DNA of 64,000 nt. Origin: a virus. This document shows, piece after piece, positions 16,923 through 44,023 of this stretch. A program made the position numbers and the translations under genes. The stretch's first letter is position 1. Each line of letters starts with the position of its first letter. The notes under the pieces were generated by a model. It ran no database searches, was not told the origin of the DNA, and was given only the letters and a program-made list of their open reading frames with translations. The stretch lies in the IMG/VR virus record IMGVR_UViG_3300045988_135886; one strand, written 5' to 3'.

Positions 16923-17894
16923 TTATTTATTTTCAACAGTTGCTACATTGCCTGATGTTAATTCTCCTGCGTCAACAATTGTTGCAGCGTTTCCACCCTG
17001 TACCTTCGGCACATCACCATTCCATTTATCAATTTTCTGTTTCTCAATAAGCTCTGGAGTAAGAGACTCGGCAATTTTCTTATTTGCTTCTGCTTCAGCA
17101 TCCGCTTTAATTCTTGTTGCTTCCGCTTTACCTTCAGCAGTAATCTTCGCCTGTTCAGCCTCAATAGCGGCCTTTTCTTTATCCTGTTCTGCTGCAATAA
17201 GAGCAACTTCTTTATCTTTATCTGCCTGTACCTTTGCAGTCTTAGCTTCAATATTTGCAAGTTCCAGTTCCTGCTGTGCATTTACTTTCTTCTGAATAGC
17301 TGCCTGAGTTTCGTCATCGGTTGAAATCGAAGTAAAGTTTACAGTATCAATGATAATTCCATATGGCTCAAATTTCTTTTTTAAGTATTTGTCAAGTGCT
17401 TCATTCAGTTCCTGGCGTTTATCACCAAATACATCTGTTACCGGATACTTAGCAGTCACTTCCTGTGTCCACGCTTTCATCTTTGGTTTAATGAAAGTAT
17501 TTTTTACACTTTCTCCGGACTGACCTTTAAATTTTGTAAATACATCAGCAACTTGATCCTGATCGAACTTATAAGAGAATTCCAAATCAACAAGAAGCTG
17601 TTTTCCATCAGCAGTAGGTGTCTTAAAACTCTCATCTTTTGGTGAATCACCTTTATCTTCTGAAGTCAGATAAGACTGTTCAATACCAATTGAATACAGT
17701 GATGTTTTTACTGTAGGTGAAATCAAATTCCATCCCTGTGGAAGAGTATCTTTTGAAATTCCACCGTTCATCTTGTATTCTACAGCTACATAACCAGCAG
17801 GAACTCTTACTGTGCACTTTGCTATACAAATTAATCCTGCTGCAATTATTACTGCTAATCCAACCCCACCTAAAAAACCTTTTTTCTTTTTCAT
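16923..17894 (-). CDS. SPFH/band-7 (stomatin/prohibitin-like) membrane protein
   Basis: 323 aa. N-terminal TM anchor, SPFH core (VPAGYVAVEYKMNGG...), Ala/Glu/Lys coiled-coil tail. Confidence 0.8.
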   Translation of the reverse strand: MKKKKGFLGGVGLAVIIAAGLICIAKCTVRVPAGYVAVEYKMNGGISKDTLPQGWNLISPTVKTSLYSIGIEQSYLTSEDKGDSPKDESFKTPTADGKQLLVDLEFSYKFDQDQVADVFTKFKGQSGESVKNTFIKPKMKAWTQEVTAKYPVTDVFGDKRQELNEALDKYLKKKFEPYGIIIDTVNFTSISTDDETQAAIQKKVNAQQELELANIEAKTAKVQADKDKEVALIAAEQDKEKAAIEAEQAKITAEGKAEATRIKADAEAEANKKIAESLTPELIEKQKIDKWNGDVPKVQGGNAATIVDAGELTSGNVATVENK

Positions 17895-18061
17895 TACTCA
17901 TTCCCCTTATCTTTTTCTTTATTTTCTTCTCTATTTATTTCGTCTGTTGCATCTTTCCAAATTCTATACAAGAATCGTCCGAATGGATAAAACAATGCAG
18001 ATAATAGGAACCATAAAATTACTGCTCCAACCAATACTAAAAATACAAATACTGGATTCAT
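17894..18061 (-). CDS. Small TM protein upstream of the SPFH gene
   Basis: MNPVFVFLVLVGAVILWFLLSALFYPF. ATG at 18061 with SD AAGGAGAGAG. Confidence 0.5.
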   Translation of the reverse strand: MNPVFVFLVLVGAVILWFLLSALFYPFGRFLYRIWKDATDEINREENKEKDKGNE

Positions 18062-18071
18062 ACTCTCTCCT

Positions 18072-18356
18072 TTATAATTCAATACCTTCCATAACAGCTC
18101 TAGCTTCTAAGATAGCTAAATAGTTTGCCATAGCATCAATCTGAATATTATAAGTACTTCTTGGACATGTTGGCTCAAAACTAAGAGTTCCATTGTCCCA
18201 TTTAAAAAGCATAGACTGTAAACCTCTGAATCTAAGCATTAACTGATAATACTCAGCTTTAAATCTTTCTTTATAATCTGGGCTAACCATCATTTCTGTT
18301 GTTTCTTTTAATGTTTTTACCATGTTATTTATCTCCTTTATGTTCTTTAATATCAT
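18072..18356 (-). CDS. Hypothetical protein (crAss001_48-like SPDYKERFKAEY motif)
   Basis: 94 aa. SPDYKERFKAEYYQLMLRFRGLQSML resembles a widespread phage family of unknown function. Confidence 0.5.
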   Translation of the reverse strand: MILKNIKEINNMVKTLKETTEMMVSPDYKERFKAEYYQLMLRFRGLQSMLFKWDNGTLSFEPTCPRSTYNIQIDAMANYLAILEARAVMEGIEL

Positions 18357-18474
18357 TTACGAGTGTCCAAGTGAAAAAAGCTACTAGCATTAAACTAAAT
18401 AAATTTTTATAAGTAATAAGATCTACTAATGATATTGCTATAAAAATAGCATATCAAGGATGATAAAAAATTTG

Positions 18475-18921
18475 TTAAACTTCATTTAATTCATCTCTCA
18501 CTCTCATAAGTATCTTCCCAAGCCTATTTTCACCAACTCCATCTACAGTTCCCCAAATAGTGTCTCCCCAAGTATTACCCTCTTCCAAATATTCATCTCC
18601 TGTAGCAAGTAATTTTTCCTTAAGGTCTGGATTCTGAGTGAATTTAGCCAGTACGATTTCATACATTACTTTATCTTTCACTTCTTCCCAATCTGATCTC
18701 AAATCAATCTTTCTACCTGCTGCCTTTGCCTCTGATGGGCTAGCTTGAGAAAATAACTGGAATTTTAGTCTACGATTTTTTGTTTTCTGTGCTTGAAAAG
18801 CTGCTTCATTATTTGTATAGTCCCATCCGTTATAACTTACCGGTGCCATATAAAAGTTACTTAAAAAGTAATAATCTCCAGTAAAACTATTAATCATTCT
18901 TTTTCCTTCCTTAATAATCAC
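18475..18921 (-). CDS. NADAR-family (YbiA/DUF1768) protein, candidate ADP-ribosyl hydrolase
   Basis: 148 aa. GDYYFLSNFY...NNEAAFQAQK...GDTIWG motifs. Confidence 0.75.
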   Translation of the reverse strand: MIIKEGKRMINSFTGDYYFLSNFYMAPVSYNGWDYTNNEAAFQAQKTKNRRLKFQLFSQASPSEAKAAGRKIDLRSDWEEVKDKVMYEIVLAKFTQNPDLKEKLLATGDEYLEEGNTWGDTIWGTVDGVGENRLGKILMRVRDELNEV

Positions 18922-19093
18922 TACAAGTTACTGTCAAACTTACAAATCCATCATTTTGCTCAAAAGATGTAATAAGCTCATCTTTTACCAATTCTTCTAC
19001 TATATCTCTGTCAGTTATTTTTGTTCCAATTAATTCAGGATCAGTCAAGTTGTATTCAGCTTCTACAGTGATCACTCTTTTTGTTGGTATCAA
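18911..19093 (-). CDS. Hypothetical protein (TTG start)
   Basis: 60-aa acidic ORF. Confidence 0.4.
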   Translation of the reverse strand: MIPTKRVITVEAEYNLTDPELIGTKITDRDIVEELVKDELITSFEQNDGFVSLTVTCSDY

Positions 19094-19193
19094 AATTTCT
19101 TTCTCACATGCATCATCAATTGGTTTATTTAATATTCTTTTTCCTCTTTGCGTAATATCACCTCCATATTTTATTTCATTGTTTAACCTCCTT

Positions 19194-19243
19194 AAGTGTA
19201 GGTGAGGAATCGAACCTCACCTTAACCTTTTGTTACTACACTT
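19194..19243 (-). other. tRNA-like minihelix (acceptor stem plus T-arm only)
   Basis: Minus strand: AAGTGTA-G-TAACAAAAGGTTAA-GGTGAGG-TTCGATT-CCTCACC-TACACTT. There is a canonical T-loop but no D or anticodon arm. Confidence 0.35.
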
Positions 19244-19326
19244 ATTTTCTCTTCCCTACAAAGAACCCAACTAAGAAACAGGCTAATAAGCATACCGCAA
19301 ACACGCCTATATTCAACACTATCATT

Positions 19327-20076
19327 TTATTTGCCTTTCTTTGCTTTCAGTTCCTGCAGCTTTTTATCAATTTCATCATCTTTCATTTTCTTATCCAGAC
19401 GCTGTTTCTGTACAGTAGTAGAACTTTCATAAGCGATCCTAGCTCCATCAGCAGCTTCTTTCTGCTTTTTAACTCCGTCACGTACTTTCTCTAACATCTT
19501 TTCCTCTTCGCTGGAACATACTCCTGGCGTTACATTAAAAGCTTTTGATGCCTGAGCAGTCTCCAAAGTTAAAACAGCACTTTCTTTTTCTGCTTTTAAA
19601 TCATTAAGTTGCTGCTGTAATACTTCTACTTTTTCTTTCTGTACATCAGCATTTTCTTTCCATTCTTTTAATGTATTTTTAATAAAATCAATCTTATCAT
19701 TCAGCTCCTGTTGTTCTTTTAAGTAGACTTTTGCCGCTTCGTCATCTCCTCGATCCACACAAGCATTTACATTTACATCTGCTTTCATGGCATCTTTCTT
19801 CAAATGGAACAAATCATCTTCATAATTAGAAATCTTACCAAGCATCTGCTGATATCTTACATTTTCCTGCTGAAGTTCATCTTCTTTCTTCTCAATAGCG
19901 GCATTATAATATGCTTTAGCTCCTTCAGGTGTAGACGCATCTTTCTGAATCGCTTCGTTTGCCGTGCCAGATGCTCTTATCCTTACTCTTTTTCCAATTT
20001 TACTATTAAAAAAGAAACAAAGTCCTACGAGTACTAAAATAACAATTATAATAATTGCTCCAGCTGTAATATTCAT
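19327..20076 (-). CDS. PspA/IM30-family protein with N-terminal TM anchor
   Basis: 249 aa. TM helix IIIIVILVLVGLCFFF, then a long coiled coil that aligns with PspA (DDEAAKVYLKEQQEL..., C-terminal LQELKAKK). Confidence 0.65.
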   Translation of the reverse strand: MNITAGAIIIIVILVLVGLCFFFNSKIGKRVRIRASGTANEAIQKDASTPEGAKAYYNAAIEKKEDELQQENVRYQQMLGKISNYEDDLFHLKKDAMKADVNVNACVDRGDDEAAKVYLKEQQELNDKIDFIKNTLKEWKENADVQKEKVEVLQQQLNDLKAEKESAVLTLETAQASKAFNVTPGVCSSEEEKMLEKVRDGVKKQKEAADGARIAYESSTTVQKQRLDKKMKDDEIDKKLQELKAKKGK

Positions 20077-20714
20077 TAGTCTCTCCCCTCATCAATATCA
20101 AGCCCAAAGTTTTTAAACAGTTCTGTCATACCTCCTACATAACCGGAACCTAATGCCTGGAATTTGAATCCATCTCCGTAACGGTATAATTTACCCATTT
20201 CTACTGCATTCAATTTTTCAAAGTTTTCATTCTCAGACAGATCATATTCATACTTATCACCATCTGGATTGTCGTAATCACAAATTGTCATAATTGCATT
20301 GGAGACCATTCCAAAATTCTGCATACGCTGTAAGGCCCTAAAAATTGTTAAGCAGATAGTAAATTCTGTTTTATCTTTCGGGAAAGTATCAGCATGCACA
20401 ATGAAATATTCGTCATAATGCTTTCCATTGAAAATCATTCCCTGAGAATCATCACCAGTTTTATTGTCTCCTGAATAGTCTACCCAAGGATATGCAGAAC
20501 CATCTTCATAGGTTTTATAGTTTACTAAATCTTCTGGATACACTACTTTACGACTTGAATCTGTTAAAAATCCATTGATATCAAAGTCAATGTCTGCTTC
20601 ACCAGCATAACGGTTCTGATCCCAATTGACTCCAATAAAGAAATTCTTAATGCCTGTACCATCTTCTTTTACCATACTAATTTTCTGATTTTTGCTCATG
20701 TTGATTACTGCCAT
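20076..20714 (-). CDS. terD: TerD-domain stress protein
   Basis: 212 aa. DIDFDINGFL and SGDNKTGDDSQG Ca2+-binding-type motifs. Confidence 0.85.
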   Translation of the reverse strand: MAVINMSKNQKISMVKEDGTGIKNFFIGVNWDQNRYAGEADIDFDINGFLTDSSRKVVYPEDLVNYKTYEDGSAYPWVDYSGDNKTGDDSQGMIFNGKHYDEYFIVHADTFPKDKTEFTICLTIFRALQRMQNFGMVSNAIMTICDYDNPDGDKYEYDLSENENFEKLNAVEMGKLYRYGDGFKFQALGSGYVGGMTELFKNFGLDIDEGRD

Positions 20715-20731
20715 ATTTCTTTATCTCCTTT

Positions 20732-21499
20732 TTATTTATTATTCAGCCAGTCTTTATACTGACGAAGAATCTCTGTATATAACTGTTCATCAGACATTTT
20801 ATTCATGTCTTTTACTGCTGTAAAACCAGTGTTATCATGTTTTCTACCTTTCATATCATCAAGAGATTTTAAATAGTCAAAATCTTCATCTCCAATTCCT
20901 ATGAACTGCACGAAGATGTTGTACTCTGAAAGCTCTTTAATAACTGCATTGGTGGCAAAAGTATCACTGTTCTCACCATCTGTAATAAAAATGATAAATG
21001 CTGGAATCTCACTTGGCTCAATATCTTTATAATATGTAACCATTTCTTTCAATACAGGAGCATAATTAGTACCACCCATATACATATGAGCTTTTTTCAT
21101 AACATTTTTAACATAACTACTATAATTATCAGCGTTAGCAGCTTTTAAGCGCTCTGCTCCATTTGAGAACAGCCAACTCTCAAGTTCTCCATTATCGTCA
21201 AATCTTAGAGCAATAGGCAACAAACGAGAAATGGTTTCCTGTACAGATCCATTATCATACAGCCAATCCATACTTCCTGAATAATCCATTGCAAGAGCTA
21301 CTCTAGCCGTATGTTTTGTCATATCAATCTTGCTTCCCTTAGACATATCAATAAGTACTTTGCCAAGATTTTCATTGTGCTTAGACATATCAATTGTCTG
21401 TAACTTTTCTTCATATACAGGTTGCTGAGTTACAGCAGAAGATAACTCTACTGCTGCTTCCTCATCTTTTTTTCCGAATAATTTTCCCAAAAATCCCAT
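20732..21499 (-). CDS. vWA-domain protein (TerF/TerY-like)
   Basis: 255 aa. MIDAS-type DYSGSM and FITDGENSD motifs. Adjacent to TerD. Confidence 0.7.
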   Translation of the reverse strand: MGFLGKLFGKKDEEAAVELSSAVTQQPVYEEKLQTIDMSKHNENLGKVLIDMSKGSKIDMTKHTARVALAMDYSGSMDWLYDNGSVQETISRLLPIALRFDDNGELESWLFSNGAERLKAANADNYSSYVKNVMKKAHMYMGGTNYAPVLKEMVTYYKDIEPSEIPAFIIFITDGENSDTFATNAVIKELSEYNIFVQFIGIGDEDFDYLKSLDDMKGRKHDNTGFTAVKDMNKMSDEQLYTEILRQYKDWLNNK

Positions 21500-21500
21500 T

Positions 21501-24122
21501 TTAGTTACTTCCTTTCTTACAAATTGCTTTTCTAATCCAATCTACAGGCACAACCATAAATGCTGTCACTAAGACTACAATCCACTGTTTAGCATCCATT
21601 GGAGTTGTCTGTACTAGATTTCCTACAAAGTTACACAAAACTACAGTCATTGCAAAAATACCCAATGCGATATACACAAATAATTTGTTATTTTTAATTC
21701 CTTTGAAAAGATTCATACTATCTGTTCTAATAGTGAATCCATTAAATACTGCCATTAGACACAATAAAGCGAATCTCGCTGTCATAGCCGAAAGTTTTGT
21801 TGTAAACATATTTCCAACTGGACCAAATGTAATTACACCAAATAAAGCAATAAATACAATTGAACTTAATGCAATTCTCCCTTTCGCTCCACGGATAAAT
21901 AATCCGGATCCTTTCATGATAGGCTCTTCATTCATATATTCCTCTTTTGGCGGTTCTCCACCAAAGCTTAATGAGTTAAGTGAATCCATGATGATATTTA
22001 CAATAAGGATCTGAACTGCTGCTAATAGAGCAGAGCCACCAGAAATAATTGGAAATACCATACTTAAGATCAACAACGAAATATTGATAGGTAGCTGGAA
22101 TTCAAGGAACATCATAATGTTATGCATAAATGTTCTACCAAGTTCGACTGCCTTTACCACACTTGCAAAATTATTGTCTGTCAAAACAATATCTGCTGCT
22201 TCTTTTGCTACATCAGATCCGTCTTGCATTCCAAAGCCTACATCTGCTTTCTTTAGTGCAGGAGCATCGTTCACACCGTCTCCGGTCATTGCCACAGACA
22301 TTCCAATTTCTTGCGCTAATGTTACAAGACGAAGCTTCGTATTCGGTGAGCATCTGGAAATTACTCTTAACTGTGGAATAATTTCTTTTACTTTTACATC
22401 TGACATTGCCTCAAACTCATCATTGGTAACTGCTAAGTCTCCAGGCTTATAAATGCCAGCTTCCATAGCAACAGCCTTAGCAGTCTCCATACAGTCACCA
22501 GTAATTTCAATTACCTGAATTCCAGCTTTATGAGCAATTTTTACTGCTTCTGGAACTTCATTCCTAACCGGGTCAACAACTCCAATGACTCCAAGGAGAT
22601 TCATTTCATCGGGGAGACCATCATCAGTTTTATCTGAGATAGTCAATGCAATACATCTCATTGCCTTCTCTGTCAATCCCTTAATATGGCTCTTTAAAGC
22701 TTTTCTTTTTTCTTCTGTCAGCTCAGTTGCAATGCCATCATTATCAAGATAAAATTTACACTTCTCAATTAATTTCTCTGGTGCGCCTTTATAAACAGTA
22801 AAATCATTTGCTCCATTATTTAAAGTAACTGCAGAGAATTTATTTTCACTACTAAATGGAACACGTTTTTTCATGATAGCTTTATTCTGTATTTTTTGTG
22901 CATCTTCAGGAGAAAGCATATCAAGCACTGCTCGATCAATTGAATTGCCACCAGTGATATTCCCATTAGAATCAAACACTGCACTATTATTCATACAAAT
23001 GTTTAAATCAATTAGCTCGTTGAGCGGACTTTCCTTATTAAAAATATCCTGACAGTTACCGTTAATCATAACTGTAGAAGTCATTTCACCTGTTGTGAGA
23101 GTTCCTGTCTTATCCGTACAAATTAAATTAACATATGCCAATTCAGGAATTTTACCAGTATTCTTCGCAAGAATATTGAATTTTTCCATTGTCGATACAT
23201 TCTGTTTAGTTACAAGTTTTACAATGAGTGGCAGACCTTCCGGTACAGCCGCAACAATAATTGTTAATGCATTTGAGATATTCTGTGCTACTTTCTGAAT
23301 ATTTTCAAGAATGTTTCCTGAGAAATACTGACTTAAACTTCCAGCATTTAAGATACCTGTAATTGTCATAATTACAAATGCTAATACTGCCGCAATTGTT
23401 CCCCATTTTGAAATAAAATCACACAAATGATCCAGAGCAATATCAAGAGCTGTCTTAGGAGGCTCTAAAGTCTGCATTTTGACAAGAGTATCACCGTTAA
23501 CTGTATTAACACCAACATCTGTAACAATCATTTTTCCTTCACCAGACATAATAACTGTTCCTGCAAAGAGCGAACACTGATCCGTATATGCAGCAGTAGA
23601 TGTTGTTTTAACATGCTTATAATTAGCACTAGGAATTTTTCTACATTCTTTTGTCTCTCCATTGATAGCGGCATTATTAACAGAAATTTCTCCTTCAACA
23701 ATAAAACCATCTGCAAAAATCTCTTGTCCAGTTCTCAATAAAACTAAATCACCTACTACCAGATCATCTTTATTAATTGTCTGTACGCTTCCATCTCGAA
23801 CAACATCACAATATCTAACTGCCGTTTTTGCTCTTAACTCTGCTGCAGATTTCTGTATTCCTAGACCTGTCTTAACAGCAATTTCAGTAACAATAGCTAA
23901 AACTACTATAATCATTACAGGTTCAGAAAGAGCCATTACTCCCATAGCTCCTAGAACTAACTGGAATAAAGCAATTATTATTAGAATCATAGTAATTGGC
24001 TCAGTTAATGCTTCCTTAGCAAAATGATACCATTTTTTCAATTCAGGTTCCGGAAGCTTATTACTTCCATATGTAGTCCTACTAACCCCTACTTCGCTAC
24101 TTTTTAATCCATTAAAATTCAT
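21501..24122 (-). CDS. P2-type cation (Ca2+)-transporting P-type ATPase
   Basis: 873 aa. CTDKTGTLT, TGDGVNDAPALKKADVG and VPEGLP in the TM4 region. No CPC or N-terminal CxxC heavy-metal motifs. Confidence 0.9.
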   Translation of the reverse strand: MNFNGLKSSEVGVSRTTYGSNKLPEPELKKWYHFAKEALTEPITMILIIIALFQLVLGAMGVMALSEPVMIIVVLAIVTEIAVKTGLGIQKSAAELRAKTAVRYCDVVRDGSVQTINKDDLVVGDLVLLRTGQEIFADGFIVEGEISVNNAAINGETKECRKIPSANYKHVKTTSTAAYTDQCSLFAGTVIMSGEGKMIVTDVGVNTVNGDTLVKMQTLEPPKTALDIALDHLCDFISKWGTIAAVLAFVIMTITGILNAGSLSQYFSGNILENIQKVAQNISNALTIIVAAVPEGLPLIVKLVTKQNVSTMEKFNILAKNTGKIPELAYVNLICTDKTGTLTTGEMTSTVMINGNCQDIFNKESPLNELIDLNICMNNSAVFDSNGNITGGNSIDRAVLDMLSPEDAQKIQNKAIMKKRVPFSSENKFSAVTLNNGANDFTVYKGAPEKLIEKCKFYLDNDGIATELTEEKRKALKSHIKGLTEKAMRCIALTISDKTDDGLPDEMNLLGVIGVVDPVRNEVPEAVKIAHKAGIQVIEITGDCMETAKAVAMEAGIYKPGDLAVTNDEFEAMSDVKVKEIIPQLRVISRCSPNTKLRLVTLAQEIGMSVAMTGDGVNDAPALKKADVGFGMQDGSDVAKEAADIVLTDNNFASVVKAVELGRTFMHNIMMFLEFQLPINISLLILSMVFPIISGGSALLAAVQILIVNIIMDSLNSLSFGGEPPKEEYMNEEPIMKGSGLFIRGAKGRIALSSIVFIALFGVITFGPVGNMFTTKLSAMTARFALLCLMAVFNGFTIRTDSMNLFKGIKNNKLFVYIALGIFAMTVVLCNFVGNLVQTTPMDAKQWIVVLVTAFMVVPVDWIRKAICKKGSN

Positions 24123-24124
24123 TC

Positions 24125-25159
24125 TTAAATCTCTCCTAATACAATTCTTTCATTGACAGACATTACAAACTCTTCTATAGCTTTATAATTTGGTTTATCA
24201 GGCAATGAGGTATTCTTTGAATCATACTCAAGTCTTTTCTCTAACTCGTTTACCATTTCAAAAAATTCTGGGATAGGCTGACTGTTTGCATCCAAATATT
24301 CTCCATTACGTAGAGCCATAAGAAGCTCATGATCATCTTCTCTATATGTAATAATTTTGCCTTTTTCAAGAATATCAAAACACATAAGATACAATCTCAC
24401 TAAATGGCACATATGCTTTCCTAGCTTATTATGTTCTATGGCATGTCTGTTTCTTTTTCCAACTTTAGAGTAATCCTTAACAATATTTTTCATTTCAGCC
24501 CACATCCCCTGATAATCATTCAAAGGATAGTGCTTCAACTGGATATCCATAAATACTTCTGTTTCATAATCTTCCTGAATACCTTTATCTACATAAAGCT
24601 TTATTGCATCTTCTGGAAAATTGAAATACTTTTCAGGGAAAGTATAAAAAGCATTCATAATACTATTAAGAACATGCTGCATTCTTTCTTCTTGCCCTAG
24701 CTTTCTAGCAGCTTTATTATCAAGCCTTCTTAGCTGGCTTGTAGCATAGCCTCCAAAAGAATAGATCGCTTTCTTAGATAAAAACATTTCAGCATTATCA
24801 AGAAGTTCTTGACCAATTGGATGAATATAAAGATAATGTTCCGGCTTCAATCCTATCAGCTCAATTGTGTTTGGGTTGCAGTTTGACAATAGAGTTATCA
24901 ATTTATTAAAAGAATAGATTGTTGTATCTGTTGTTTCTTCCGTTACCTGATCAAAATTATGTGTAGGAATCAGGATTTCTTCTCTTTTATTTAAAGCACA
25001 ACCCCTAATATCCAGATCGGAGCTTTCTGTATCTGTACCATAAGCATGAGACCCACCTAAGCCTAATAGAATTATGTTGCTCCCCAGGTGCTCGTCCGCT
25101 CTTAAGAAATCATAATGTTCACTTTTCAACAACTTCTTGATTTTCTCTATCTTCATCAA
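24125..25159 (-). CDS. Pol-beta superfamily nucleotidyltransferase (RlaP/YcgL-like)
   Basis: 344 aa. GLGGSHAYGTDTESSDLDIRG motif and the helical C-terminal KHMCHLVRLYLM segment. Confidence 0.65.
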   Translation of the reverse strand: MMKIEKIKKLLKSEHYDFLRADEHLGSNIILLGLGGSHAYGTDTESSDLDIRGCALNKREEILIPTHNFDQVTEETTDTTIYSFNKLITLLSNCNPNTIELIGLKPEHYLYIHPIGQELLDNAEMFLSKKAIYSFGGYATSQLRRLDNKAARKLGQEERMQHVLNSIMNAFYTFPEKYFNFPEDAIKLYVDKGIQEDYETEVFMDIQLKHYPLNDYQGMWAEMKNIVKDYSKVGKRNRHAIEHNKLGKHMCHLVRLYLMCFDILEKGKIITYREDDHELLMALRNGEYLDANSQPIPEFFEMVNELEKRLEYDSKNTSLPDKPNYKAIEEFVMSVNERIVLGEI

Positions 25160-25646: not shown

Positions 25647-26030
25647 TCAGATAATCTGTAAGTTTTCATCACCAATAAGCCATGCAGAATCTAAAATAAA
25701 ATTTTCATATGGATCACCATTGTCATTCCAGAACTCATCCGATCCAACCTCCCAATCGCCCAATGTTCCAGCATTAAAGTTACCGTATAAATAATCTGCC
25801 ACATATTCTAAAAACGCATCTGCAGCCTTATCATAATCTTCTTTTCTTATTAACTCTTCTACATCCGGCTCAAGATCAATCCATTTATGCTGTTCAATCA
25901 AAAAAGATTTAGCGTTGTCTCTTACTTTCAGCAGTGAGTTTTTAATGTCTGTCAATGTTGCATCTTTCTTTTTTGCAATGATATAACTTGAAGACGAACT
26001 ATTAGTAACAAATCCTCTTCTTATTTTCAT
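25647..26030 (-). CDS. NSSSSS-family acidic protein, paralog 1
   Basis: MKIRRGFVTNSSSSSYII N-terminus. The rest is Asp/Glu-rich. Confidence 0.6.
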   Translation of the reverse strand: MKIRRGFVTNSSSSSYIIAKKKDATLTDIKNSLLKVRDNAKSFLIEQHKWIDLEPDVEELIRKEDYDKAADAFLEYVADYLYGNFNAGTLGDWEVGSDEFWNDNGDPYENFILDSAWLIGDENLQII

Positions 26031-26425
26031 TAACCATCTCTCCCTTCTCCTTCAGCAACTTCTATATCAGCAAATCCATTTACTTCCGTAATAGCATCTA
26101 TTGCTTCATTCATAGAGAAATCATAATCATATACAGCATCACCCCATTCATCATAATAAGCATCGTTCCTGTCCTCAATTACGATATATTCTCCATCAGG
26201 GTGCTTTTCTAAAATGTCATCAACTCCATAAATGACCGCTCCGCACCAACTAGCACCAAGCTCACCGGACCAGTTTCTTTCATCATTTACACCAGTGACA
26301 TCTAATACATCAAGATTGAACTGATCAATTATCTTCTGAGCTTTTTCTTTGTCAGCAATCCTTGCAAAGCAAATAATGAAACTGCTAGAGCTTGAATTAG
26401 TAACAAATCCTTTCCGTATTTTCAT
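26030..26425 (-). CDS. NSSSSS-family acidic protein, paralog 2
   Basis: MKIRKGFVTNSSSSSFII N-terminus. Strongly acidic C-terminal half. Confidence 0.6.
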   Translation of the reverse strand: MKIRKGFVTNSSSSSFIICFARIADKEKAQKIIDQFNLDVLDVTGVNDERNWSGELGASWCGAVIYGVDDILEKHPDGEYIVIEDRNDAYYDEWGDAVYDYDFSMNEAIDAITEVNGFADIEVAEGEGRDG

Positions 26426-26627: not shown

Positions 26628-27776
26628 TTACATGTCCTCCATTGAATAAATTACTCTTTCTAAACTTCTTTTTGATTTGAAACACTTCTTAAGTAAACAC
26701 CACATAATGGCTTTTTCAGTATCATCTTCGTCTTCCCAATCATTTAAGACTACAGAAGTCTGTGTTCCATCTTTGAATCCTACAGTAGTTCTAATTTTCC
26801 CTGTAGCAATATCTTTTGTTCTTCCTACAAATGAAATATCATCTTTAGACAATGTTTTATAAACACGTTTATCAAAATCATCTTTAGATATAATGTATAC
26901 ATCAACGCCTAAAGCCTCTTTAATTTGACGTTCACAGCTCCTAAACTCTTTATCGAGTGCATGCTTATGATTAATAGTTTCTTGAGCCTTCTCTAAAGCT
27001 ACAGCAATATCTTCTGGTGAGCAACAATATGTCATATTATTATCCTCCTTGTAATTGAAATACGGCATTGGTTTCATTTTAAACTTATTTTTTGTATGTA
27101 AACGATCAATCCGTCTTTTAATTTCCGGATCATCGCAAATACCTGTACGAATATATCTATCTAATACTGCATAGGTAAATCCGAAGTTATCTTCATCTGA
27201 TTTACCGCATAACCCATCTGATGGTGTTTTCTCTACATATTTTTTAGGTAATCCTAAGTAATAACCGATTCTTTTTACTTCACTCTTTGTGAACTGTGCC
27301 AATGGAGCAAAGTCTCCTGCTGAGTCACCATATCTAGTGGAGTATCCGATGTAATCCTCACTAAGGTTACATGTATTAACCACTCTTCCATTGTGTGACT
27401 GCGATACCCCGTATAGAGTGGCCATTCTTAGTCTAGGAGCGAGATTAATTAATGTCTGATCTGTTACATTAAATGCAGCATCAATTTGATCAATAATATC
27501 ATCATAAGCTGATCCAATATTAATAGTAAGATAATCAATGTTTAATACATGCTGGCAAATATCATAAGCCACACAAATATCATCCTGTTTATAATTTGGC
27601 ATAATTACTCCAAGAACCTTGTCAGCTCCAATAGCTTCTACACATAACTCAGCAGCCACTAAAGAATCAACACCACCGGAGATACCTACTATAAAATTAC
27701 ATCCTGGGCCGTTCTCTTCTCTCCAATCTCTAATCCACTGAATACAATCATTTGTTGCTTTTTCTACATTAAACAT
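26628..27776 (-). CDS. nadE: NAD+ synthetase (NadE-like PP-loop ATPase) fused to a C-terminal domain of ~130 aa of unknown function
   Basis: 382 aa. GISGGVDSLVAAELC PP-loop. The NadE-like region covers about 250 aa; the remainder (from MTYCCSPEDIAVALE...) has no recognisable motif. Confidence 0.8.
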   Translation of the reverse strand: MFNVEKATNDCIQWIRDWREENGPGCNFIVGISGGVDSLVAAELCVEAIGADKVLGVIMPNYKQDDICVAYDICQHVLNIDYLTINIGSAYDDIIDQIDAAFNVTDQTLINLAPRLRMATLYGVSQSHNGRVVNTCNLSEDYIGYSTRYGDSAGDFAPLAQFTKSEVKRIGYYLGLPKKYVEKTPSDGLCGKSDEDNFGFTYAVLDRYIRTGICDDPEIKRRIDRLHTKNKFKMKPMPYFNYKEDNNMTYCCSPEDIAVALEKAQETINHKHALDKEFRSCERQIKEALGVDVYIISKDDFDKRVYKTLSKDDISFVGRTKDIATGKIRTTVGFKDGTQTSVVLNDWEDEDDTEKAIMWCLLKKCFKSKRSLERVIYSMEDM

Positions 27777-28269
27777 TCTGCTCCTCCAATTTCCACAATT
27801 CTACTTTAAAACTACTTAATTCTTCTTCTATAATCTTATAAACCACTTCCCAGTCTGCTCCTCCTCTTCCGCAGCCTATTTTGTATGGGAGTGCAATGGT
27901 TGTCTTATGAGGCCTGTTATCAGCATCAAACCAATAAACAGGTATTTGTTGTTGAATGAAATTTAATCCTTCTCGAAAAGCTTTAACATCAGTATATTGT
28001 TTCCCATCATATTCGTATTTATCTTGTGCAAATAAGGATAATATTCCTTGATTTTTCCTTCTGATAAAGTATTCGTCATATGTTCCAAGAAGTAATTCTG
28101 GATTAAACTCACGTAATTTACAGACGTTTCTATAATGTATATAAATACCTTCGTCATAATCTCTTAATGCTTTAGCAACTCCAGTATTCATTTTTCCTTG
28201 GCAATTAACTTGATGAATTATATAGTCGGTCTGCGCATCTACAATGTTACCTTCAATAATTTTAATCAT
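27769..28269 (-). CDS. Macro-domain protein (ADP-ribose binding/hydrolase)
   Basis: MIKIIEGNIVDAQTDYIIHQVNCQGKMNTGVAKAL...IGCGRGGADW. The start is moved to the second Met to remove the overlap with the upstream ORF. Confidence 0.75.
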   Translation of the reverse strand: MIKIIEGNIVDAQTDYIIHQVNCQGKMNTGVAKALRDYDEGIYIHYRNVCKLREFNPELLLGTYDEYFIRRKNQGILSLFAQDKYEYDGKQYTDVKAFREGLNFIQQQIPVYWFDADNRPHKTTIALPYKIGCGRGGADWEVVYKIIEEELSSFKVELWKLEEQNV

Positions 28270-28279
28270 AAATCTTTTC

Positions 28280-28687
28280 CTATAAATCCTGAAATGTAAA
28301 CTTCTCGCCACAGGAGCAAATCACTTCTCCAATAGTTCCTATTGATGTTGGTGTAAAGCACCATGTAAGAGAACCGCCTATGCAACCATGTCCCATTGCT
28401 CTCTGTTTAGAAGTTTTCAGACCATGTTTCTCAGCATCATGTTTTAATTCCCACTCTCTGATTTTCTCTTGTTCTTTTTCTGAAATTGGAAATCCTCTAT
28501 ATAAATCGTCTTTTGCTTCTTTTAACTCAGCTTCCATTCTTTGCATTTCAGAATCTTTATAATGCTCATCTTTGAGCTTCTTGTTTTCTTCTTCTAAGTA
28601 TTTAATTCGTTTTTCATAAGTGTCTACTTTATCAACAATCCCCTGACAAAGATCTGAAACTGAATCAGTAAAATATGTACTACTCAT
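28280..28687 (-). CDS. Hypothetical coiled-coil protein with a Cys/His C-terminus
   Basis: 135 aa. GHGCIGG...CSCGEKF. Confidence 0.5.
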   Translation of the reverse strand: MSSTYFTDSVSDLCQGIVDKVDTYEKRIKYLEEENKKLKDEHYKDSEMQRMEAELKEAKDDLYRGFPISEKEQEKIREWELKHDAEKHGLKTSKQRAMGHGCIGGSLTWCFTPTSIGTIGEVICSCGEKFTFQDL

Positions 28688-28704
28688 TTTTTATACCTCC
28701 ATAT

Positions 28705-29178
28705 CTACTCCATAAATGATGAAACATGTACGGTTACAAAATCACTATGTGCACGAATATAATCCAAAGTTTTAACTGTATCTTCTACAATTGCAATCTG
28801 AGATGGCTTAAGTCCGAGCTTTTGTTGCAGCGTTTGAAGCACAGTAAGTTTTTCTGTCTTTTCTAAAGTGAAATAGATATTATCATCTGGCAGATCATAA
28901 TTGTCTTTTATAAAAGCTCTTTTACCAGGAATTTCATTTAAAGGACTCTTTGAACAGGTATATACTTTATTCACGCCTTTATTCTGAATAAACTCCTGCA
29001 TTAATTTGATCGGACGCACATCTTTATACGGATTCTCACCGGAAGCTACAAGTCTGTCCCATTCATCGTCAGTCATACTATGACTTAATTCAGAAAACTC
29101 ATACGGAGCAAGTACTCCATCTACATCCATTACTACAATCACATCATCTTTTAATAAATAATCTGTAATTTTACTCAT
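28705..29178 (-). CDS. HAD-superfamily hydrolase (nucleotidase-like)
   Basis: 157 aa. VVMDVDGVLAP DxDG motif. Confidence 0.55.
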   Translation of the reverse strand: MSKITDYLLKDDVIVVMDVDGVLAPYEFSELSHSMTDDEWDRLVASGENPYKDVRPIKLMQEFIQNKGVNKVYTCSKSPLNEIPGKRAFIKDNYDLPDDNIYFTLEKTEKLTVLQTLQQKLGLKPSQIAIVEDTVKTLDYIRAHSDFVTVHVSSFME

Positions 29179-30646
29179 CTTTGTTTCTTCCGTTTAATCT
29201 GTCTCTGATTTCTTTAAATATTTCTGTATGATATATTTCACCGTCTTTAAATACAGTTTTTAATGCCCCATCATAAACAAAGCTGTCATATCCATCTCTG
29301 CACCTTAATTCTCCATTTTCATCGTAATATACATGACAACATCCTTTATGAGATTTCTTTAAATGGCTTACATCTGTCTTTGGATCTTTGTAAATCATAA
29401 TCGGTTGTCCGTTAACTTCTCCAAATGTAGCTTTCATAGCAATGCCGAACATATCTCTGGTTACAACGACCATACGTCCATCAGGTTCTACAACTGCCGA
29501 GAAACAAAAAGCCCCAACTCCAAATACAATGTTGTTTGCAGCGAATCCTTTCTTCTCAAGTTCTTCCCATACCTTTTTTACATTGTTAAGAGTACAGCCA
29601 TCACCATAGATAATTCCAATATGAGGGTCCAGTACTTTGTAACCTTTGCTATTTACTGATCCTTTAAATGTATTCCAGAGTTTTTCGATAGTCTTAACTG
29701 AAATCTCTACCATATCACCAGAATCCGGACGAACCAAGAGCTTACCATTGTGCTGCATAATTTCTTTTTTGCAAGCTGGAAGAATATTGTCAATCATGTT
29801 CCAGTAATCATATGTATCAGATACCATGCTGAAAGATGCATTCGGATATAATTCTGTAAGTAGTCTTTTCACAAATGTAATTTCGTCTCCGTCCACAGCA
29901 TAATTTGAAGCCATGACCGCATGTTCGGTAGAAATCGCACCAATTCCAATATGACTCACGCTACAGTCATTGAAATAATATTTGTCCAAATAATCAATTG
30001 CCGGGATCGTACTTGTCTTATCAAAGGATAATAGCCAAGCAACGGAGCATCTCTCTGCTTCTTCCATACAGGACATTCCACGCATTCCAAAGTCTGAGCA
30101 GGCCATTTCAGGTCTTAAAATGTCGTCGCAGGTCTTTTTATAGTAGAAATTTGCCAGTTCTCTGTACATATGTCCAATTGTTGCATGAGCACACGGCTTC
30201 CAAAGCTCAACCTGCAGAATACACTCAATCCACTGCACAACCCATGCAAAATCTGGATGTGTATTCGTGATTTCAATGCATGGCACTCCCATAGGCACTA
30301 ATGTACCTTCCGGCAATGCACGGATCTGAATCGGAAGATACCCTAATTCGTGAAGTTTAAGGATTGGAGAAATATCGTAATTTCCTTCTCCTAACTGAAT
30401 GTCCATACTAATTGTATAAAGTTCTTGAACTTCATCAGTGCTTAATTTAAAGAAATCTCTTTTAAAATATGTAATAAGATATTCTTTAATAAAAGCCTGC
30501 AGTCCGAAGAAAACCATATGATCCTGCTCCTTTAACATTGATCTTCTCGGAGTCCAATAAGAGACTAACTTCGTCAATCCTCTCGGAAACATATTGTGGT
30601 GTACTTGTTTGTAAGTATCGCTTAACAGAATTGCTAAGGTATCCAT
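29171..30646 (-). CDS. NAMPT-family phosphoribosyltransferase (nicotinamide PRTase or NARP1 Namat-type)
   Basis: 491 aa. LLSDTYKQVHH, DFGMRG, VRPDSGD, IIYGDG, KDPKTDVSHLKKSHKG motifs. Confidence 0.85.
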   Translation of the reverse strand: MDTLAILLSDTYKQVHHNMFPRGLTKLVSYWTPRRSMLKEQDHMVFFGLQAFIKEYLITYFKRDFFKLSTDEVQELYTISMDIQLGEGNYDISPILKLHELGYLPIQIRALPEGTLVPMGVPCIEITNTHPDFAWVVQWIECILQVELWKPCAHATIGHMYRELANFYYKKTCDDILRPEMACSDFGMRGMSCMEEAERCSVAWLLSFDKTSTIPAIDYLDKYYFNDCSVSHIGIGAISTEHAVMASNYAVDGDEITFVKRLLTELYPNASFSMVSDTYDYWNMIDNILPACKKEIMQHNGKLLVRPDSGDMVEISVKTIEKLWNTFKGSVNSKGYKVLDPHIGIIYGDGCTLNNVKKVWEELEKKGFAANNIVFGVGAFCFSAVVEPDGRMVVVTRDMFGIAMKATFGEVNGQPIMIYKDPKTDVSHLKKSHKGCCHVYYDENGELRCRDGYDSFVYDGALKTVFKDGEIYHTEIFKEIRDRLNGRNKDE

Positions 30647-41857: not shown

Positions 41858-42769
41858 TTATAAATAACTATAAAATTTATTTTTAAGAGTTCCTTTGCCA
41901 TAAGAACTTATATTATAATTTGAACTAACCATTTCAACATACTGGCTTTCAAAGATATCTTCCTTAGAAACATTATATTTCTTCATTATTTCTCTAAACT
42001 GCTCTACAATTCCGGCTGTATAGAGTCGAGGAATAGTCAGATACGGAATATTAAGCTCTTTTCTAAGCGCAATTAACCTATTTGTCAGTCTTAGATTTAA
42101 AGCTTCTAATGAATCACTACGTGTATTATTCCTGGAGTTAACAATATTCCCCTTCATACTTAATAAAGAAGCAGTTCCAGTAAAAGATATATACTCCTCC
42201 TCTTGTGAACTAACTTTAGCCAAGTCTACCAGCGTCTCTGACAAAGTTTTTTCCTCTCCGTTTTCGAAAGTAAGGATATTACCATTCAACTTACTTATTT
42301 TAGCTCTTAAAAGCTCACCGGGGGCTTCTGTTCTTACTCCTTCAAACAAAGCCAGAATTAAAAATTTATCAGAATAGTTTCTAATTTTAGAAATATCCTT
42401 TAAAACCTGTTCTCTGCTGGGACACACCGCTCTCTCCTTATTAAGATATTTCTGTAGACTTTCAATTTCCATATTTATTTCATCATAGTGATTTATGTTG
42501 TCTATAGATATGTTGCAGGAACAACACCAGTCAGCATATTTCCGTAAAACACTTATATTTTTCCTTAAGGCATTTATTGATGAGGCTGCAAATGTAGACA
42601 ACAATTTATCTATTTCAGAAAAAGTAAAATCACATAAGTCCTTGTTAAGTAAGTCCTCATAGTCTTCCGTTTTGTTAAAAAGAGCTTTCGCACTTTGTGG
42701 AGTTTGTCCGAGATCTTCTACTACATGTCGCAGATATTCTTTCTTCCGTTCTTCATTATACATAATCAC
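41858..42769 (-). CDS. Tyrosine-recombinase-like protein, apparently degenerate
   Basis: 303 aa. SAM-like N-terminal domain and a box-I-like GVRTEAPGELLRAKISKL. The position of the HxxR box reads TIPRLYTAG, and no clear catalytic Tyr context is present. Confidence 0.4.
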   Translation of the reverse strand: MIMYNEERKKEYLRHVVEDLGQTPQSAKALFNKTEDYEDLLNKDLCDFTFSEIDKLLSTFAASSINALRKNISVLRKYADWCCSCNISIDNINHYDEINMEIESLQKYLNKERAVCPSREQVLKDISKIRNYSDKFLILALFEGVRTEAPGELLRAKISKLNGNILTFENGEEKTLSETLVDLAKVSSQEEEYISFTGTASLLSMKGNIVNSRNNTRSDSLEALNLRLTNRLIALRKELNIPYLTIPRLYTAGIVEQFREIMKKYNVSKEDIFESQYVEMVSSNYNISSYGKGTLKNKFYSYL

Positions 42770-43994: not shown

Positions 43995-44023
43995 ATTATA
44001 TCATTGTTTAGAACTTATTTCAA
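43995..44023 (-). promoter_or_regulatory. Sigma-70-type promoter with extended -10, ahead of the ParB-like gene
   Basis: TTGAAA (44018-44023), 17 nt, TGaTATAAT (-10 at 43995-44000). Overlaps the integrase stop. Confidence 0.55.

Follow-up and report, generated by a model that had tools for sequence, protein, structure and literature searches.

The window analyzed here is a 64,000-nt stretch of viral DNA, and all of the open reading frames described below are present in it at the coordinates given, on the minus strand. In the direction of transcription, the run begins with an RlaP-type nucleotidyltransferase (24125..25159; Pfam RlaP, 3.3e-16) and continues with an 873-aa P-type ATPase (21501..24122; Pfam E1-E2_ATPase, Cation_ATPase_N, Cation_ATPase_C and Hydrolase), a 255-aa TerF-type vWA protein (20732..21499; vWA-TerF-like, 1.4e-59), a 212-aa TerD-domain protein (20076..20714; TerD, 2.1e-34), a 249-aa transmembrane (TM)-anchored protein of the PspA/Vipp1 type within the ESCRT-III superfamily (19327..20076), recognised by profile, phmmer and Foldseek comparisons, and a single-helix membrane peptide of 27 aa (19242..19325). 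Further along lie a 60-aa ORF (18911-19093), a NADAR gene (18475-18921; 1.5e-29), a crAss001_48-like gene (18072-18356; 2.8e-17), a 62-aa TM protein without a Pfam or PHROG match (17894-18082) and its partner, an SPFH/Band-7 protein (16923-17894; Band_7, 1.7e-23). Pfam profile searches bore out the SPFH, crAss001_48, NADAR, TerD, vWA, ATPase and RlaP calls of an earlier note on this DNA.

The upper part of the run is densely packed. RlaP and the ATPase are separated by 2 nt, the ATPase and the vWA gene by 1 nt, and the vWA and TerD genes by 17 nt, while the TerD stop codon and the PspA start codon overlap as TAATG. On this minus strand, the TerD stop codon ends, and the PspA start codon begins, at base 20076; the earlier description of this base as the PspA stop and the TerD start has the two the wrong way round. 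The gene of the 27-aa peptide, which was absent from the earlier annotation, starts 2 nt past the PspA stop codon, and a gap of 233 nt lies between PspA and the group formed by the 60-aa ORF, NADAR and crAss001_48. Promoter and terminator scans gave nothing above chance, and the operon structure is therefore based on spacing and synteny only.

Across loci seeded independently by the ATPase, the vWA protein and PspA, the same-strand order of ATPase, vWA and/or one to three TerDs, and TM-PspA was kept in every locus with enough flank (149/149). This order is found in three cassette architectures and holds down to 46% identity for the ATPase and 30% for PspA. In lineage A, to which the window belongs, the vWA gene is the second core gene and TerD the third; other lineages have three TerD paralogues instead of, or in addition to, the vWA gene. 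These results show that four to five genes form a conserved operon in these phages, comprising the pump, a vWA protein and/or one to three TerDs, TM-PspA and often the 27-aa peptide. Thus, the idea of one membrane/Ca2+ unit survives for the ATPase-vWA/TerD-TM-PspA core, but not for the nine-gene block in which it had been framed: on checking adjacency in related phages, this core was co-conserved, and the other genes came and went or changed place.

The outer genes behave differently from this core. SPFH and its 62-aa partner occur within the flanks of 28/166 loci; the pair moves as one indel, and is present or absent even among near-identical phages. SPFH-NfeD operons pair SPFH with an NfeD-family membrane protein, a family to which the Pfam and PHROG searches did not link the 62-aa partner. 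NADAR, crAss001_48 and the 60-aa ORF stand beside the cassette only in its closest relatives (~30/158 loci), as neighbours with no link to the unit. RlaP is found directly upstream of the ATPase in just 41/149 loci and elsewhere or not at all in the others, and it is a better fit to the surrounding RNA-repair genes than to a membrane unit. It is highly improbable that the nine genes form a single membrane-integrity block in which SPFH and PspA act together as in Bacillus subtilis pspA-ydjGHI. A functional link between PspA and the SPFH protein YdjI is established for that system (PMC8581546, PMC11237479), and several lineages again have SPFH genes no more than 10 kb away. However, although an SPFH gene also lies near the phage PspA, the two are not co-conserved: the SPFH pair is missing in roughly one in three near-identical genomes and in the majority of divergent ones, takes other positions in more distant relatives, and is separated from PspA by three unrelated genes and two intergenic gaps. 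Synteny largely refutes this block.

The cassette is located in the early/replication and repair region of a phage of ~140 kb, whose host is likely a member of the gut Lachnospiraceae (Blautia / "Ruminococcus"). Phage contigs of Bacillota carrying the fused operon measure ~90-250 kb. Nearby repair and counter-defence genes encode NAD synthase, NAMPT, a DarG-like macrodomain protein, NADAR, RNA ligase, a Pnkp-like protein and RlaP, and relatives additionally carry PARG and a CCA-adding enzyme near the cassette. The element is very abundant, with one PspA variant indexed in 1,644 assembly blocks and another 90% cluster comprising 1,251 members. Damaged cassettes were also found, one with an IS110 element between the ATPase and vWA genes (L162) and one with a split ATPase (L161), and more distant relatives anchored on NadE showed no cassette within 10 kb. 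The cassette is therefore accessory and not essential. Searched with PADLOC models including TerY-P, the SPFH, PspA, TerD, vWA, ATPase and RlaP proteins gave no match at E <= 0.01; the neighbouring NADAR matched the candidate model PDC-M42C, the only such match.

The best PDB matches of the ATPase are all Ca2+ pumps, led by ACA8 (9e-104) and followed by LMCA1, SPCA1 and PMCA1/2, and the alignments to ACA8 and LMCA1 span the full length. The protein has the expected catalytic features, i.e. the DKTGT phosphorylation site, the TGDGVNDAP hinge, the E1-E2/HAD domains and about ten TM helices. It passes the NCBIfam equivalog model TIGR01517 for PMCA-type Ca2+ ATPases marginally (508.3 bits, cut-off 507.05) and scores far below the cut-offs of the PMR1-type and SERCA-type models. 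Its AVPEGLPL, FQLPINIS and VNIIMDSL segments align with AVPEGLPL, FQLTVNVA and VNLIMDTL of ACA8, placing the ion-site residues at the PEGLP Glu (TM4), the FQLxxN Asn (TM5) and the VNxxMD Asn and Asp (TM6). After PMCA and LMCA1, we take this pattern to represent a single Ca2+ site. Across 22 representative ATPase clusters, which reach down to 46% identity, no variation was seen in DKTGT, GDGVND, AVPEGLP or the TM6 string VNIIMDS. By sequence, the ATPase is a PMCA-type (P2B-like) Ca2+ exporter, with transport predicted, and the earlier call of a PEGLP-type Ca2+ pump is corroborated by this single-site signature and the TIGR01517 score just above the cut-off.

The TerD protein of the window scores 119 bits against the Pfam TerD model (gathering score 25.3) and can be aligned along its entire length with Klebsiella TerD (2KXT, 8.5e-23, residues 4-206), a protein that binds Ca2+ (PMC8123226). 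It does contain the GDNKTGDD string highlighted earlier, but within a Ca2+-binding loop that has an insertion of 8-9 residues compared to canonical TerD, which marks it as a specialised subtype. This loop reads GDNKTG-DDSQGMIFNGKHYDE, and the insertion is conserved across lineage A. The canonical 13-residue motif GDN(R/L)TG(E/A)GDGDDE is thus not found in the window TerD; in lineage B, all three TerDs have retained it in the form GDNxTGxGxGDDE. Because the insertion falls within the canonical Ca2+-binding loop, Ca2+ binding by the window TerD is uncertain.

The vWA protein reaches 202 bits against PF10138 (vWA-TerF-like; cut-off 29.4), with further Pfam matches to Copine (6.7e-11) and VWA (2.5e-8), and no solved structure related to it by sequence was found. 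MIDAS-type strings (DYSGS, GGT and TDG) were seen in the translation by inspection; together with the vWA-TerF-like match, they agree with its previous description as a MIDAS-bearing vWA protein. Its N-terminal motif MG[FL][FL]xK[LI]FGKK is conserved in 19/19 representative vWA clusters.

For PspA, the Pfam evidence falls below the usual threshold: the window protein scores 29.0 bits against PF04012 and its relatives 25.7-31.3, under the gathering score of 33.9. Four independent lines of evidence nevertheless favour the PspA/IM30 assignment made earlier. The Pfam alignment is collinear and covers 196/220 profile positions, and with a profile of the family the top four PDB matches are Vipp1/PspA (E = 1e-4), the remainder being coiled-coil noise. 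A library-wide phmmer search recovers the canonical PspAs P0183 (3.5e-10; itself 115 bits to PF04012) and P0266. Foldseek ranks Vipp1/PspA structures in the first 15 places and lists CdvB and Asgard ESCRT-III after them. The AF2 model is moderately confident overall (pLDDT 72.5) and exceeds 90 in the hairpin (residues 50-180), which superposes on Escherichia coli PspA at 1.6 A over 116 columns.

The N-terminal TM helix, already pointed out as unusual, is real and kept in 26/26 PspA clusters (85% identity). While the ESCRT-III-like fold is shared with B. subtilis and classical PspA, the amphipathic helix alpha0 is replaced by a hydrophobic TM helix in every family member, and no PspB/C/F or Lia genes were found in the cassette neighbourhood. 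Because positive residues follow the TM helix, the sequence suggests that the PspA domain is cytoplasmic. The TM-PspA family is small, with 154 clusters among 1.84 billion in the library, and this PspA type was found in only 8 loci among 185,579 species genomes. A vWA or TerD gene lies upstream of PspA in all of the 7/7 loci among these with enough sequence, 6 of which also have the ATPase.

The 27-aa membrane peptide has the sequence MIVLNIGVFAVCLLACFLVGFFVGKRK. It was detected in 13/26 PspA clusters, representing both lineages, and in 89/166 loci, always at -3 to +4 nt from the PspA stop codon and nowhere else. Entropy in its gene is concentrated at the third codon position (30.3, compared to 18.0 at position 1 and 12.0 at position 2), and 43% of the codon differences are synonymous. 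The gene is a conserved, often-present member of the operon.

A chromosomal Ter locus of the likely Blautia / 'Ruminococcus' hosts has the order MarR - PRTase_2/TRSP - StiP/PELOTA - C-C lyase - YceG - TelA - TerDx3 - P2-type ATPase. As in the phage unit, TerD paralogues adjoin a P2-type ATPase, here of ~875 aa, and the PEGLP, FQLxxN and NxxMD ion-site motifs are common to both pumps. This host linkage of three TerDs to a P2-type ATPase had been missed in the first reading of the DNA. The lineage-B phage TerDs share 52-62% identity with the three host paralogues, whereas the host and phage pumps are only 33% identical, with the same motifs, an identity too low to show direct descent of the pump. 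Compared to the host locus, the phage unit lacks TelA, YceG, the regulator and the nucleoside-signal enzymes, runs in the opposite gene order so that the pump comes first, and adds the TM-anchored PspA and the micropeptide. In lineage A, moreover, a vWA protein and the loop-insertion TerD take the place of the three TerDs. With YceG-TelA-TerDx3-P2-ATPase at the end of the host locus, the phage unit has the appearance of a shortened Ter effector arm to which a phage-specific, membrane-anchored PspA has been added. Among the components of a full Ter system that were looked for (TelA, YceG, TerC and the PRTase/StiP/C-C-lyase module), none is in the cassette, which has TerD and the TerF-type vWA only; it therefore resembles part of a Ter system and is not a complete one.

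Such an abridged Ter system could serve superinfection exclusion or inter-phage competition by blocking entry or growth of competing phages, a reading that we consider possible but rather unlikely. Phage inhibition and colicin resistance are both phenotypes associated with Ter operons (PMC8123226). In jumbo phages, abbreviated Ter operons carry TerD and a TerF-type vWA with a proposed action at the membrane, and Iyer et al. suggested such a role for them, with TelA and the TerF vWA as sub-membrane barriers (PMC7824862). Those operons, however, contain TerC and TelA, and that paper has 0 occurrences of a P-type pump or PspA (PMC7824862). A resident state is made plausible by two tyrosine-recombinase (integrase-like) genes and an anti-repressor gene (Ant) in the window. 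Yet the phage-inhibition phenotype was reported for the full enterobacterial ter operon, of which TerC, TerB and TerZ are absent here, PADLOC gave no match, and exclusion leaves the invariance of the Ca2+ pump and PspA unexplained.

The recombinase and anti-repressor genes would equally suit a lysogenic-conversion or host-fitness module, i.e. a second Ter effector arm, carried by a temperate or episomal phage, that escapes the host regulator and helps the carrier bacterium to withstand envelope stresses of the gut such as bile, bacteriocins, high Ca2+ or metals. In line with this, the homologous host locus stands under a MarR-type regulator, and the cassette was found in assemblies of cultured isolates (for example, in Ruminococcus sp. 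AM36-2AA on a scaffold of 499 kb, and in a protein record from Blautia faecis). But we regard this role as very doubtful, as the cassette lies among same-strand replication, NAD-salvage and RNA-repair genes and not at a prophage end, where morons usually reside.

The explanation that we consider best, with an even chance of being correct, is that the operon acts as an autonomous, Ca2+-responsive effector arm for membrane protection. In this model, the pump would hold cytosolic Ca2+ low, and TerD and vWA, binding divalent cations beneath the membrane, would report or buffer Ca2+ entry upon a breach. The permanently anchored PspA polymer could then stabilise or seal the damaged bilayer, and the micropeptide may adjust either the pump or the anchoring of PspA. 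For the phage, the benefit would be an infected (or lysogenic) cell that stays energised despite membrane damage, be it from injection, superinfecting phages, bacteriocins or membrane-perforating abortive-infection effectors. Such protection would parallel the neighbouring genes for NAD+ restoration, ADP-ribosylation reversal and RNA repair. No link of the cassette to a specific host effector was found, and the roles suggested earlier, countering abortive infection or setting the time of lysis, are hypothetical.

In eukaryotic plasma-membrane repair, Ca2+ sensors (ALG-2, annexins and copines) act first, followed by ESCRT-III, and PMCA clears the Ca2+. The phage operon resembles this set in its predicted Ca2+-binding proteins, its copine-like vWA, its ESCRT-III-superfamily polymer and its PMCA-type pump; between TerD and ALG-2 or annexins, however, there is no homology. 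By this analogy, the operon might be a minimal, self-contained Ca2+-triggered membrane-repair machine directed against membrane-perforating abortive-infection effectors, in which Ca2+ entering through a lesion would be sensed by TerD and vWA, these would nucleate polymerisation of the pre-anchored PspA at the wound, and the pump, perhaps tuned by the 27-aa peptide, would reset Ca2+. This version is tentative and fairly unlikely; if true, it would be the equivalent, in viruses and bacteria, of the eukaryotic wound response and give TerD a concrete job. The role of TerD and Ter has been obscure for decades despite phage-, colicin- and tellurite-resistance phenotypes, and a Ter system pared down to TerD and a Ca2+ pump and joined to TM-PspA points to Ca2+ handling at the stressed membrane as its core. 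At ~5 kb and with its high abundance, the cassette is tractable for testing a link between TerD, Ca2+ and ESCRT-III, and it adds a possible membrane-repair arm to the phage functions encoded alongside. Even if it provided only generic Ca2+ housekeeping, the annotation would be useful for a common gut phage group.

Parts of the combination have been published, which qualifies the earlier statement that it was undescribed. Jug (jumbo gut) phages of Bacteroides, which are unrelated to the present phages, encode a Ca2+ P-type ATPase, several TerDs and a pspA-like gene beside terD, transcribed in vivo, and the same paper lists Ca2+ P-type ATPases in further huge phages as well as four smaller ones (Sci Adv 2026, PMC12880540). 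This independent recurrence, like that of TM-PspA in a more distant branch paired with ABC transporters, counts in favour of the membrane-protecting effector arm. In Jug phages, the pump and a small gene upstream of it (77-91 aa) make up one operon and terD-pspA another (PMC12880540); in the present phages, pump, TerD and PspA are fused in one conserved operon. Together with the jumbo-phage Ter operons cited above, this leaves the fused ATPase-TerD-PspA operon as the part of which no description was found.

These comparisons also bear on a quite unlikely alternative to the membrane-protecting effector arm, in which the pump is the active part and lowers cytosolic Ca2+ for replication, with PspA, the micropeptide and TerD aiding insertion, tolerance or regulation of a foreign transporter expressed at a high level. 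In other systems, small peptides with a single helix act as regulators of P-type ATPases, and both branches of the TM-PspA family occur beside a primary transporter, which is a P-type pump in the present cassette and an ABC system in the distant branch. The Jug-phage pump is highly transcribed, and Ca2+ remodelling was proposed as its role (PMC12880540). On the other hand, this pump lies outside the terD-pspA operon and therefore does not need PspA, and the retention of as many as three TerD copies seems to go beyond a chaperone role. PspA-transporter links were also noted by Ravi et al., including a PspA homologue with a TM segment in an operon with an ABC transporter and an SBP-OmpA protein, which, unlike the phage cassette, has no Ca2+ pump and neither TerD nor vWA (PMC11237479). 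The distant TM-PspA branch (21-25% identity) shares this ABC-transporter context, also in phage-like NAD-salvage neighbourhoods, as in one such relative, and a 185-aa partner without a recognised fold stands there in the place of TerD/vWA.

Between 14 and 28 kb, all genes of the window lie on the minus strand; its G+C content is ~34% and its GC skew steadily negative throughout. Profile searches upheld the domain calls of the earlier note for the Band_7/SPFH (16923-17894, 1.7e-23), crAss001_48 (18072-18356, 2.8e-17), NADAR (18475-18921, 1.5e-29), TerD (20076-20714, 2.1e-34), TerF-type vWA (vWA-TerF-like, 20732-21499, 1.4e-59; also Copine, 6.7e-11) and RlaP (24125-25159, 3.3e-16) proteins, as well as for the P-type ATPase (21501-24122) with its Cation_ATPase_N and Cation_ATPase_C domains, all encoded on the minus strand. 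All of these proteins are also included in phage protein families (PHROGs). The genes are transcribed in the order RlaP, ATPase, vWA, TerD and PspA, with gaps of 2, 1 and 17 nt from RlaP to TerD and a TAATG overlap at the TerD/PspA junction. This confirms the earlier observation, except that the shared base 20076, read there as PspA stop and TerD start, ends TerD and starts PspA. Scans for promoter-like (37 sites versus 39.9 expected) and terminator-like sequences (5 sites versus 3.4 expected) were not informative.

The conservation of this arrangement was assessed by tblastn, in which the window proteins were compared with 158 IMG/VR loci and another 15 loci, and then by an architecture census in which linkage of ATPase, TerD and PspA was scored in the 149 loci with enough upstream sequence (distinct contigs are fewer than loci, as some were matched in two scans). 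In all 149, the ATPase is accompanied by one or more TerDs and by PspA with order and strand unchanged, either as ATPase-vWA-TerD-PspA (102 loci, with RlaP directly upstream in 41), as ATPase-TerDx3-PspA (42 loci, the three TerD paralogues being confirmed by Pfam) or as ATPase-vWA-TerDx3-PspA (5 loci). The linkage persists down to 46% ATPase and 30% PspA identity, with 26 PspA clusters at 85% identity, and, since ATPase, vWA protein and PspA each served as independent seeds for the loci, it is not a retrieval artefact.

SPFH was found within the flanks in only 28 of 166 loci, and in near-identical phages, with the NAD synthase gene taken as anchor, it was present together with its 62-aa partner in ~9 and missing in ~5. 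NADAR, crAss001_48 and the 60-aa ORF lie beside the cassette in the closest relatives only, and RlaP is frequently near it, yet on either side. This synteny largely excludes the single nine-gene block from SPFH to RlaP (16923-25159) that had been proposed, a reading we now consider extremely unlikely. What stands of the earlier interpretation is a co-conserved membrane/Ca2+ core, redrawn around five genes that encode the ATPase, the vWA protein, TerD, a TM-anchored PspA and a 27-aa peptide.

In one relative (L162, 7008-8174), the ATPase and vWA genes are separated by an inserted IS110-family transposase, and in another (L161, 5758-8279) the ATPase is broken into two ORFs; the cassette is therefore open to disruption in nature. 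More distant relatives have no cassette near the NAD synthase gene. One contig of 250,027 bp (IMGVR_UViG_3300029402_000234, covering loci L010 and L023) carries two cassettes ~190 kb apart, whose ATPases are 98% and 71% identical to that of the window; the contig probably reflects either chimeric assembly from two related phages or a co-integrate.

The fifth gene, missed in the earlier note, is a 27-codon ORF (MIVLNIGVFAVCLLACFLVGFFVGKRK; 19325-19242, minus strand) located 2 nt past the PspA stop codon. A peptide of the pattern MIVLNIGVF...GF..GKRK directly adjoins the PspA stop codon in 13 of the 26 PspA clusters, among them the lineage with a PspA of only 33-36% identity, and it is present in 89 of 166 loci, where it occurs at no other place. 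Its codons vary mostly in the third position (entropy 30.3 versus 18.0 and 12.0), and 43% of the codon differences are synonymous. The peptide gene is a real, facultative member of the unit. In the 233-nt gap beyond it, a minus-strand hairpin at 19200-19223 (AAGGTGAGG-TTCGATT-CCTCACCT) includes the tRNA T-arm-like GGTTCGATTCC; ARAGORN called no tRNA at this hairpin, which may be left over from a tRNA or serve as a site of recombination or processing.

The best solved relatives of the pump are all Ca2+ pumps (ACA8, LMCA1, SPCA1 and PMCA). Its TM4 (AVPEGLPL), TM5 (FQLPINIS) and TM6 (VNIIMDSL) strings fit the PMCA pattern and are, together with DKTGT and GDGVND, invariant over 22 clusters, and the pump narrowly passes the curated PMCA-type equivalog cut-off. 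The TerD of the window aligns over its full length with Klebsiella TerD. In the vWA-bearing lineage, the Ca2+-binding loop of TerD contains a conserved insertion of 8-9 residues; the triple-TerD lineage has kept the canonical Ca2+-binding motif. The vWA protein shows a MIDAS-type DYSGS, T, D pattern, and its residues 1-11 (MG[FL][FL]xK[LI]FGKK) are strictly conserved in 19/19 clusters. This N-terminus (MGFLGKLFGKK) was considered as an amphipathic membrane-targeting helix comparable to PspA alpha0 or the MinD targeting sequence, which a helical hydrophobic-moment test did not support, its muH of 0.20 being equalled or exceeded in 1448 of 2000 shuffles.

The PspA protein (19327-20076, minus strand) scored 29 bits against Pfam, below the cut-off of 33.9 bits, with an alignment spanning positions 24-219 of the 220-position profile. 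A profile of its family ranked Vipp1/PspA top in the PDB. The AF2 model, built on a shallow alignment of 15 sequences, combines a TM helix (residues 3-25) with a confidently modelled helical hairpin, and its top 15 Foldseek matches were Vipp1/PspA, followed by archaeal ESCRT-III. Common to all PspA-like members are the TM helix, a GKR...R.SGT linker and a DAxTPEGAKxYYN motif. Among 1.84 billion representative proteins, only 154 related clusters were retrieved, canonical PspAs among them, and a scan of 185,579 species genomes detected this TM-anchored PspA in only eight places, with cassette genes upstream at every one of those that had enough sequence.

More distant members of the TM-PspA family (21-25% identity) adjoin ABC transporters, in one case with phage-like NAD-salvage surroundings. 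Based on these relatives and on the operon type of ABC transporter and TM-PspA noted by Ravi et al. (PMC11237479), a membrane-anchored PspA beside a primary transporter is a recurring design. A role in plain Ca2+ manipulation, with PspA acting as a helper of the transporter, appears quite unlikely for the unit described here. The phage-like NAD-salvage contig (L178, 3585-7915) encodes an ABC permease, an ABC ATPase, a 185-aa protein, TM-PspA and an SBP-OmpA protein, and exemplifies a second kind of "transporter plus anchored PspA" unit. The idea that the 185-aa protein is a TerD in disguise was dropped, as neither the PDB nor Pfam holds a relative and the sequence seems unrelated.

MT836648 and MT840059, both labelled "Bacteriophage sp.", were first taken for independent phage examples. 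The former (MT836648.1, "UNVERIFIED: Bacteriophage sp.", our locus L203) is a Blautia-type bacterial chromosome with MetRS, MoaC, TatD and capsule genes. Its Ter locus is complete and has at its end YceG-TelA-TerDx3 and the beginning of a P-type ATPase. The same locus is extremely common in Blautia and "Ruminococcus" chromosomes, in the order MarR, PRTase_2/TRSP, StiP/PELOTA, C-C lyase, YceG, TelA, three TerDs and an 878-aa P2-ATPase. Host and phage pumps are 33% identical and share the same ion-site motifs, and the three TerDs of the triple-TerD phage lineage match the three host paralogues at 52-62% identity. In contrast to the host locus, the phage unit has no regulator, signal-synthesis enzymes, TelA or YceG, whereas the TM-anchored PspA is its own and no part of the host Ter locus. 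Because of the shared ion-site motifs and the TerD identity, the phage unit is best read as the host Ter system stripped down to its membrane-proximal effector end. An extra 288-aa host TerD, which adjoins AIM24, was rejected as the source of the loop-insertion TerD, being just 23% identical.

Beyond the gene content, order, conservation, motif integrity, fold and host parallel documented here, Ca2+-linked membrane protection is the likeliest candidate role of the unit, at odds that we put at about even. The pump would export Ca2+, divalent cations beneath the membrane would be bound by the TerD and vWA proteins, stabilisation or repair of the bilayer may fall to the anchored PspA, and the 27-aa peptide might modulate one membrane partner. 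The altered TerD loop, the two broken cassettes, the absence near the NAD synthase gene in more distant relatives and the missing PADLOC match count against a strong functional claim. Superinfection exclusion, the role suggested by Iyer et al. for Ter subsets in jumbo phages (PMC7824862), could likewise be assigned to the unit, but PADLOC matched no cassette protein to any known defence model, and we consider this assignment unlikely.

Among gut phages, Ca2+-translocating P-type ATPases have been reported (2025-2026) from Jug phages, from 81 further huge phages and from four of smaller size, and each Jug genome harbours three terD genes, one of them in an operon with a pspA-like gene (PMC12880540). 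The Jug pump lies in a different operon from terD-pspA, with a small upstream gene (PMC12880540), whereas pump, TerD and PspA are fused in the unit of the window. A large PSP survey mentions neither TerD, vWA and P-type ATPases nor viruses (PMC11237479), and a fused pump-TerD-PspA operon was described nowhere in the literature searched. The earlier suggestion of a combination undescribed as a phage unit holds, within that literature, for this fused operon, but phage Ca2+ pumps and a terD-pspA operon were, separately, already in PMC12880540. The unit is a variation on Ter systems, Psp systems and phage Ca2+ pumps and not a categorically new system; its value lies in a compact, abundant and testable link of TerD, Ca2+ and an ESCRT-III-type membrane protein.

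The cassette adjoins an NAD+/ADP-ribose cluster (26628-30646 plus the NADAR gene at 18475-18921), to which relatives add PncA, CinA and PARG. In the window, it comprises NAMPT (29171-30646), an NAD synthase with a C-terminal extension of ~150 aa (26628-27776) and a DarG-like macrodomain (27769-28311); the latter label is tentative, as the NCBIfam match is sub-threshold and Pfam gave nothing for this ORF, first guessed to be "Macro". The cluster looks like a counter-defence and repair region. By association, the neighbours (NAD+ salvage, NADAR, the DarG-like macrodomain, RNA ligase, a Pnkp-like gene and RlaP, with PARG and a CCA-adding enzyme in relatives) support a theme of restoring what defence systems break.

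The window further encodes replication proteins (DNA polymerase, exonuclease, primase, DnaB and Sak4), an RNA ligase, the Pnkp-like gene, an NAD-dependent ligase and three tRNAs. Two tyrosine-recombinase genes and an Ant anti-repressor gene (41858-42769, 44015-45022 and 56752-57828) in a phage of ~140 kb, along with copies in cultured-isolate assemblies, suggest a temperate or episomal lifestyle. The recombinase and Ant genes would also fit a contribution of the unit to lysogen fitness, which we regard as improbable. Clues point to Lachnospiraceae as host, because one PspA relative is annotated in a Blautia faecis record and genome matches include a 499-kb scaffold of the isolate Ruminococcus sp. 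AM36-2AA. Megablast with the 8.3-kb block gave no nucleotide match among GenBank phages, and tblastn against cultured phages yielded weak matches. One of these phages, Bacillus phage YungSlug with two TerD genes, was dismissed, as its "ATPase domain protein" and "membrane protein" match neither the pump nor PspA. Two adjacent ORFs (25647-26030 and 26030-26425) without a Pfam match are paralogues sharing the N-terminus MKIR(R/K)GFVTNSSSSS(Y/F)II.

IMG/VR contains many relatives on contigs of 90-250 kb. The closest contig (L184, IMGVR_UViG_3300045988_145867) has ATPase, vWA and TerD proteins 100% identical to those of the window, with NadE and PspA at 95-96% and the 60-aa ORF at 77%; phages of this type are mosaic at the gene scale.
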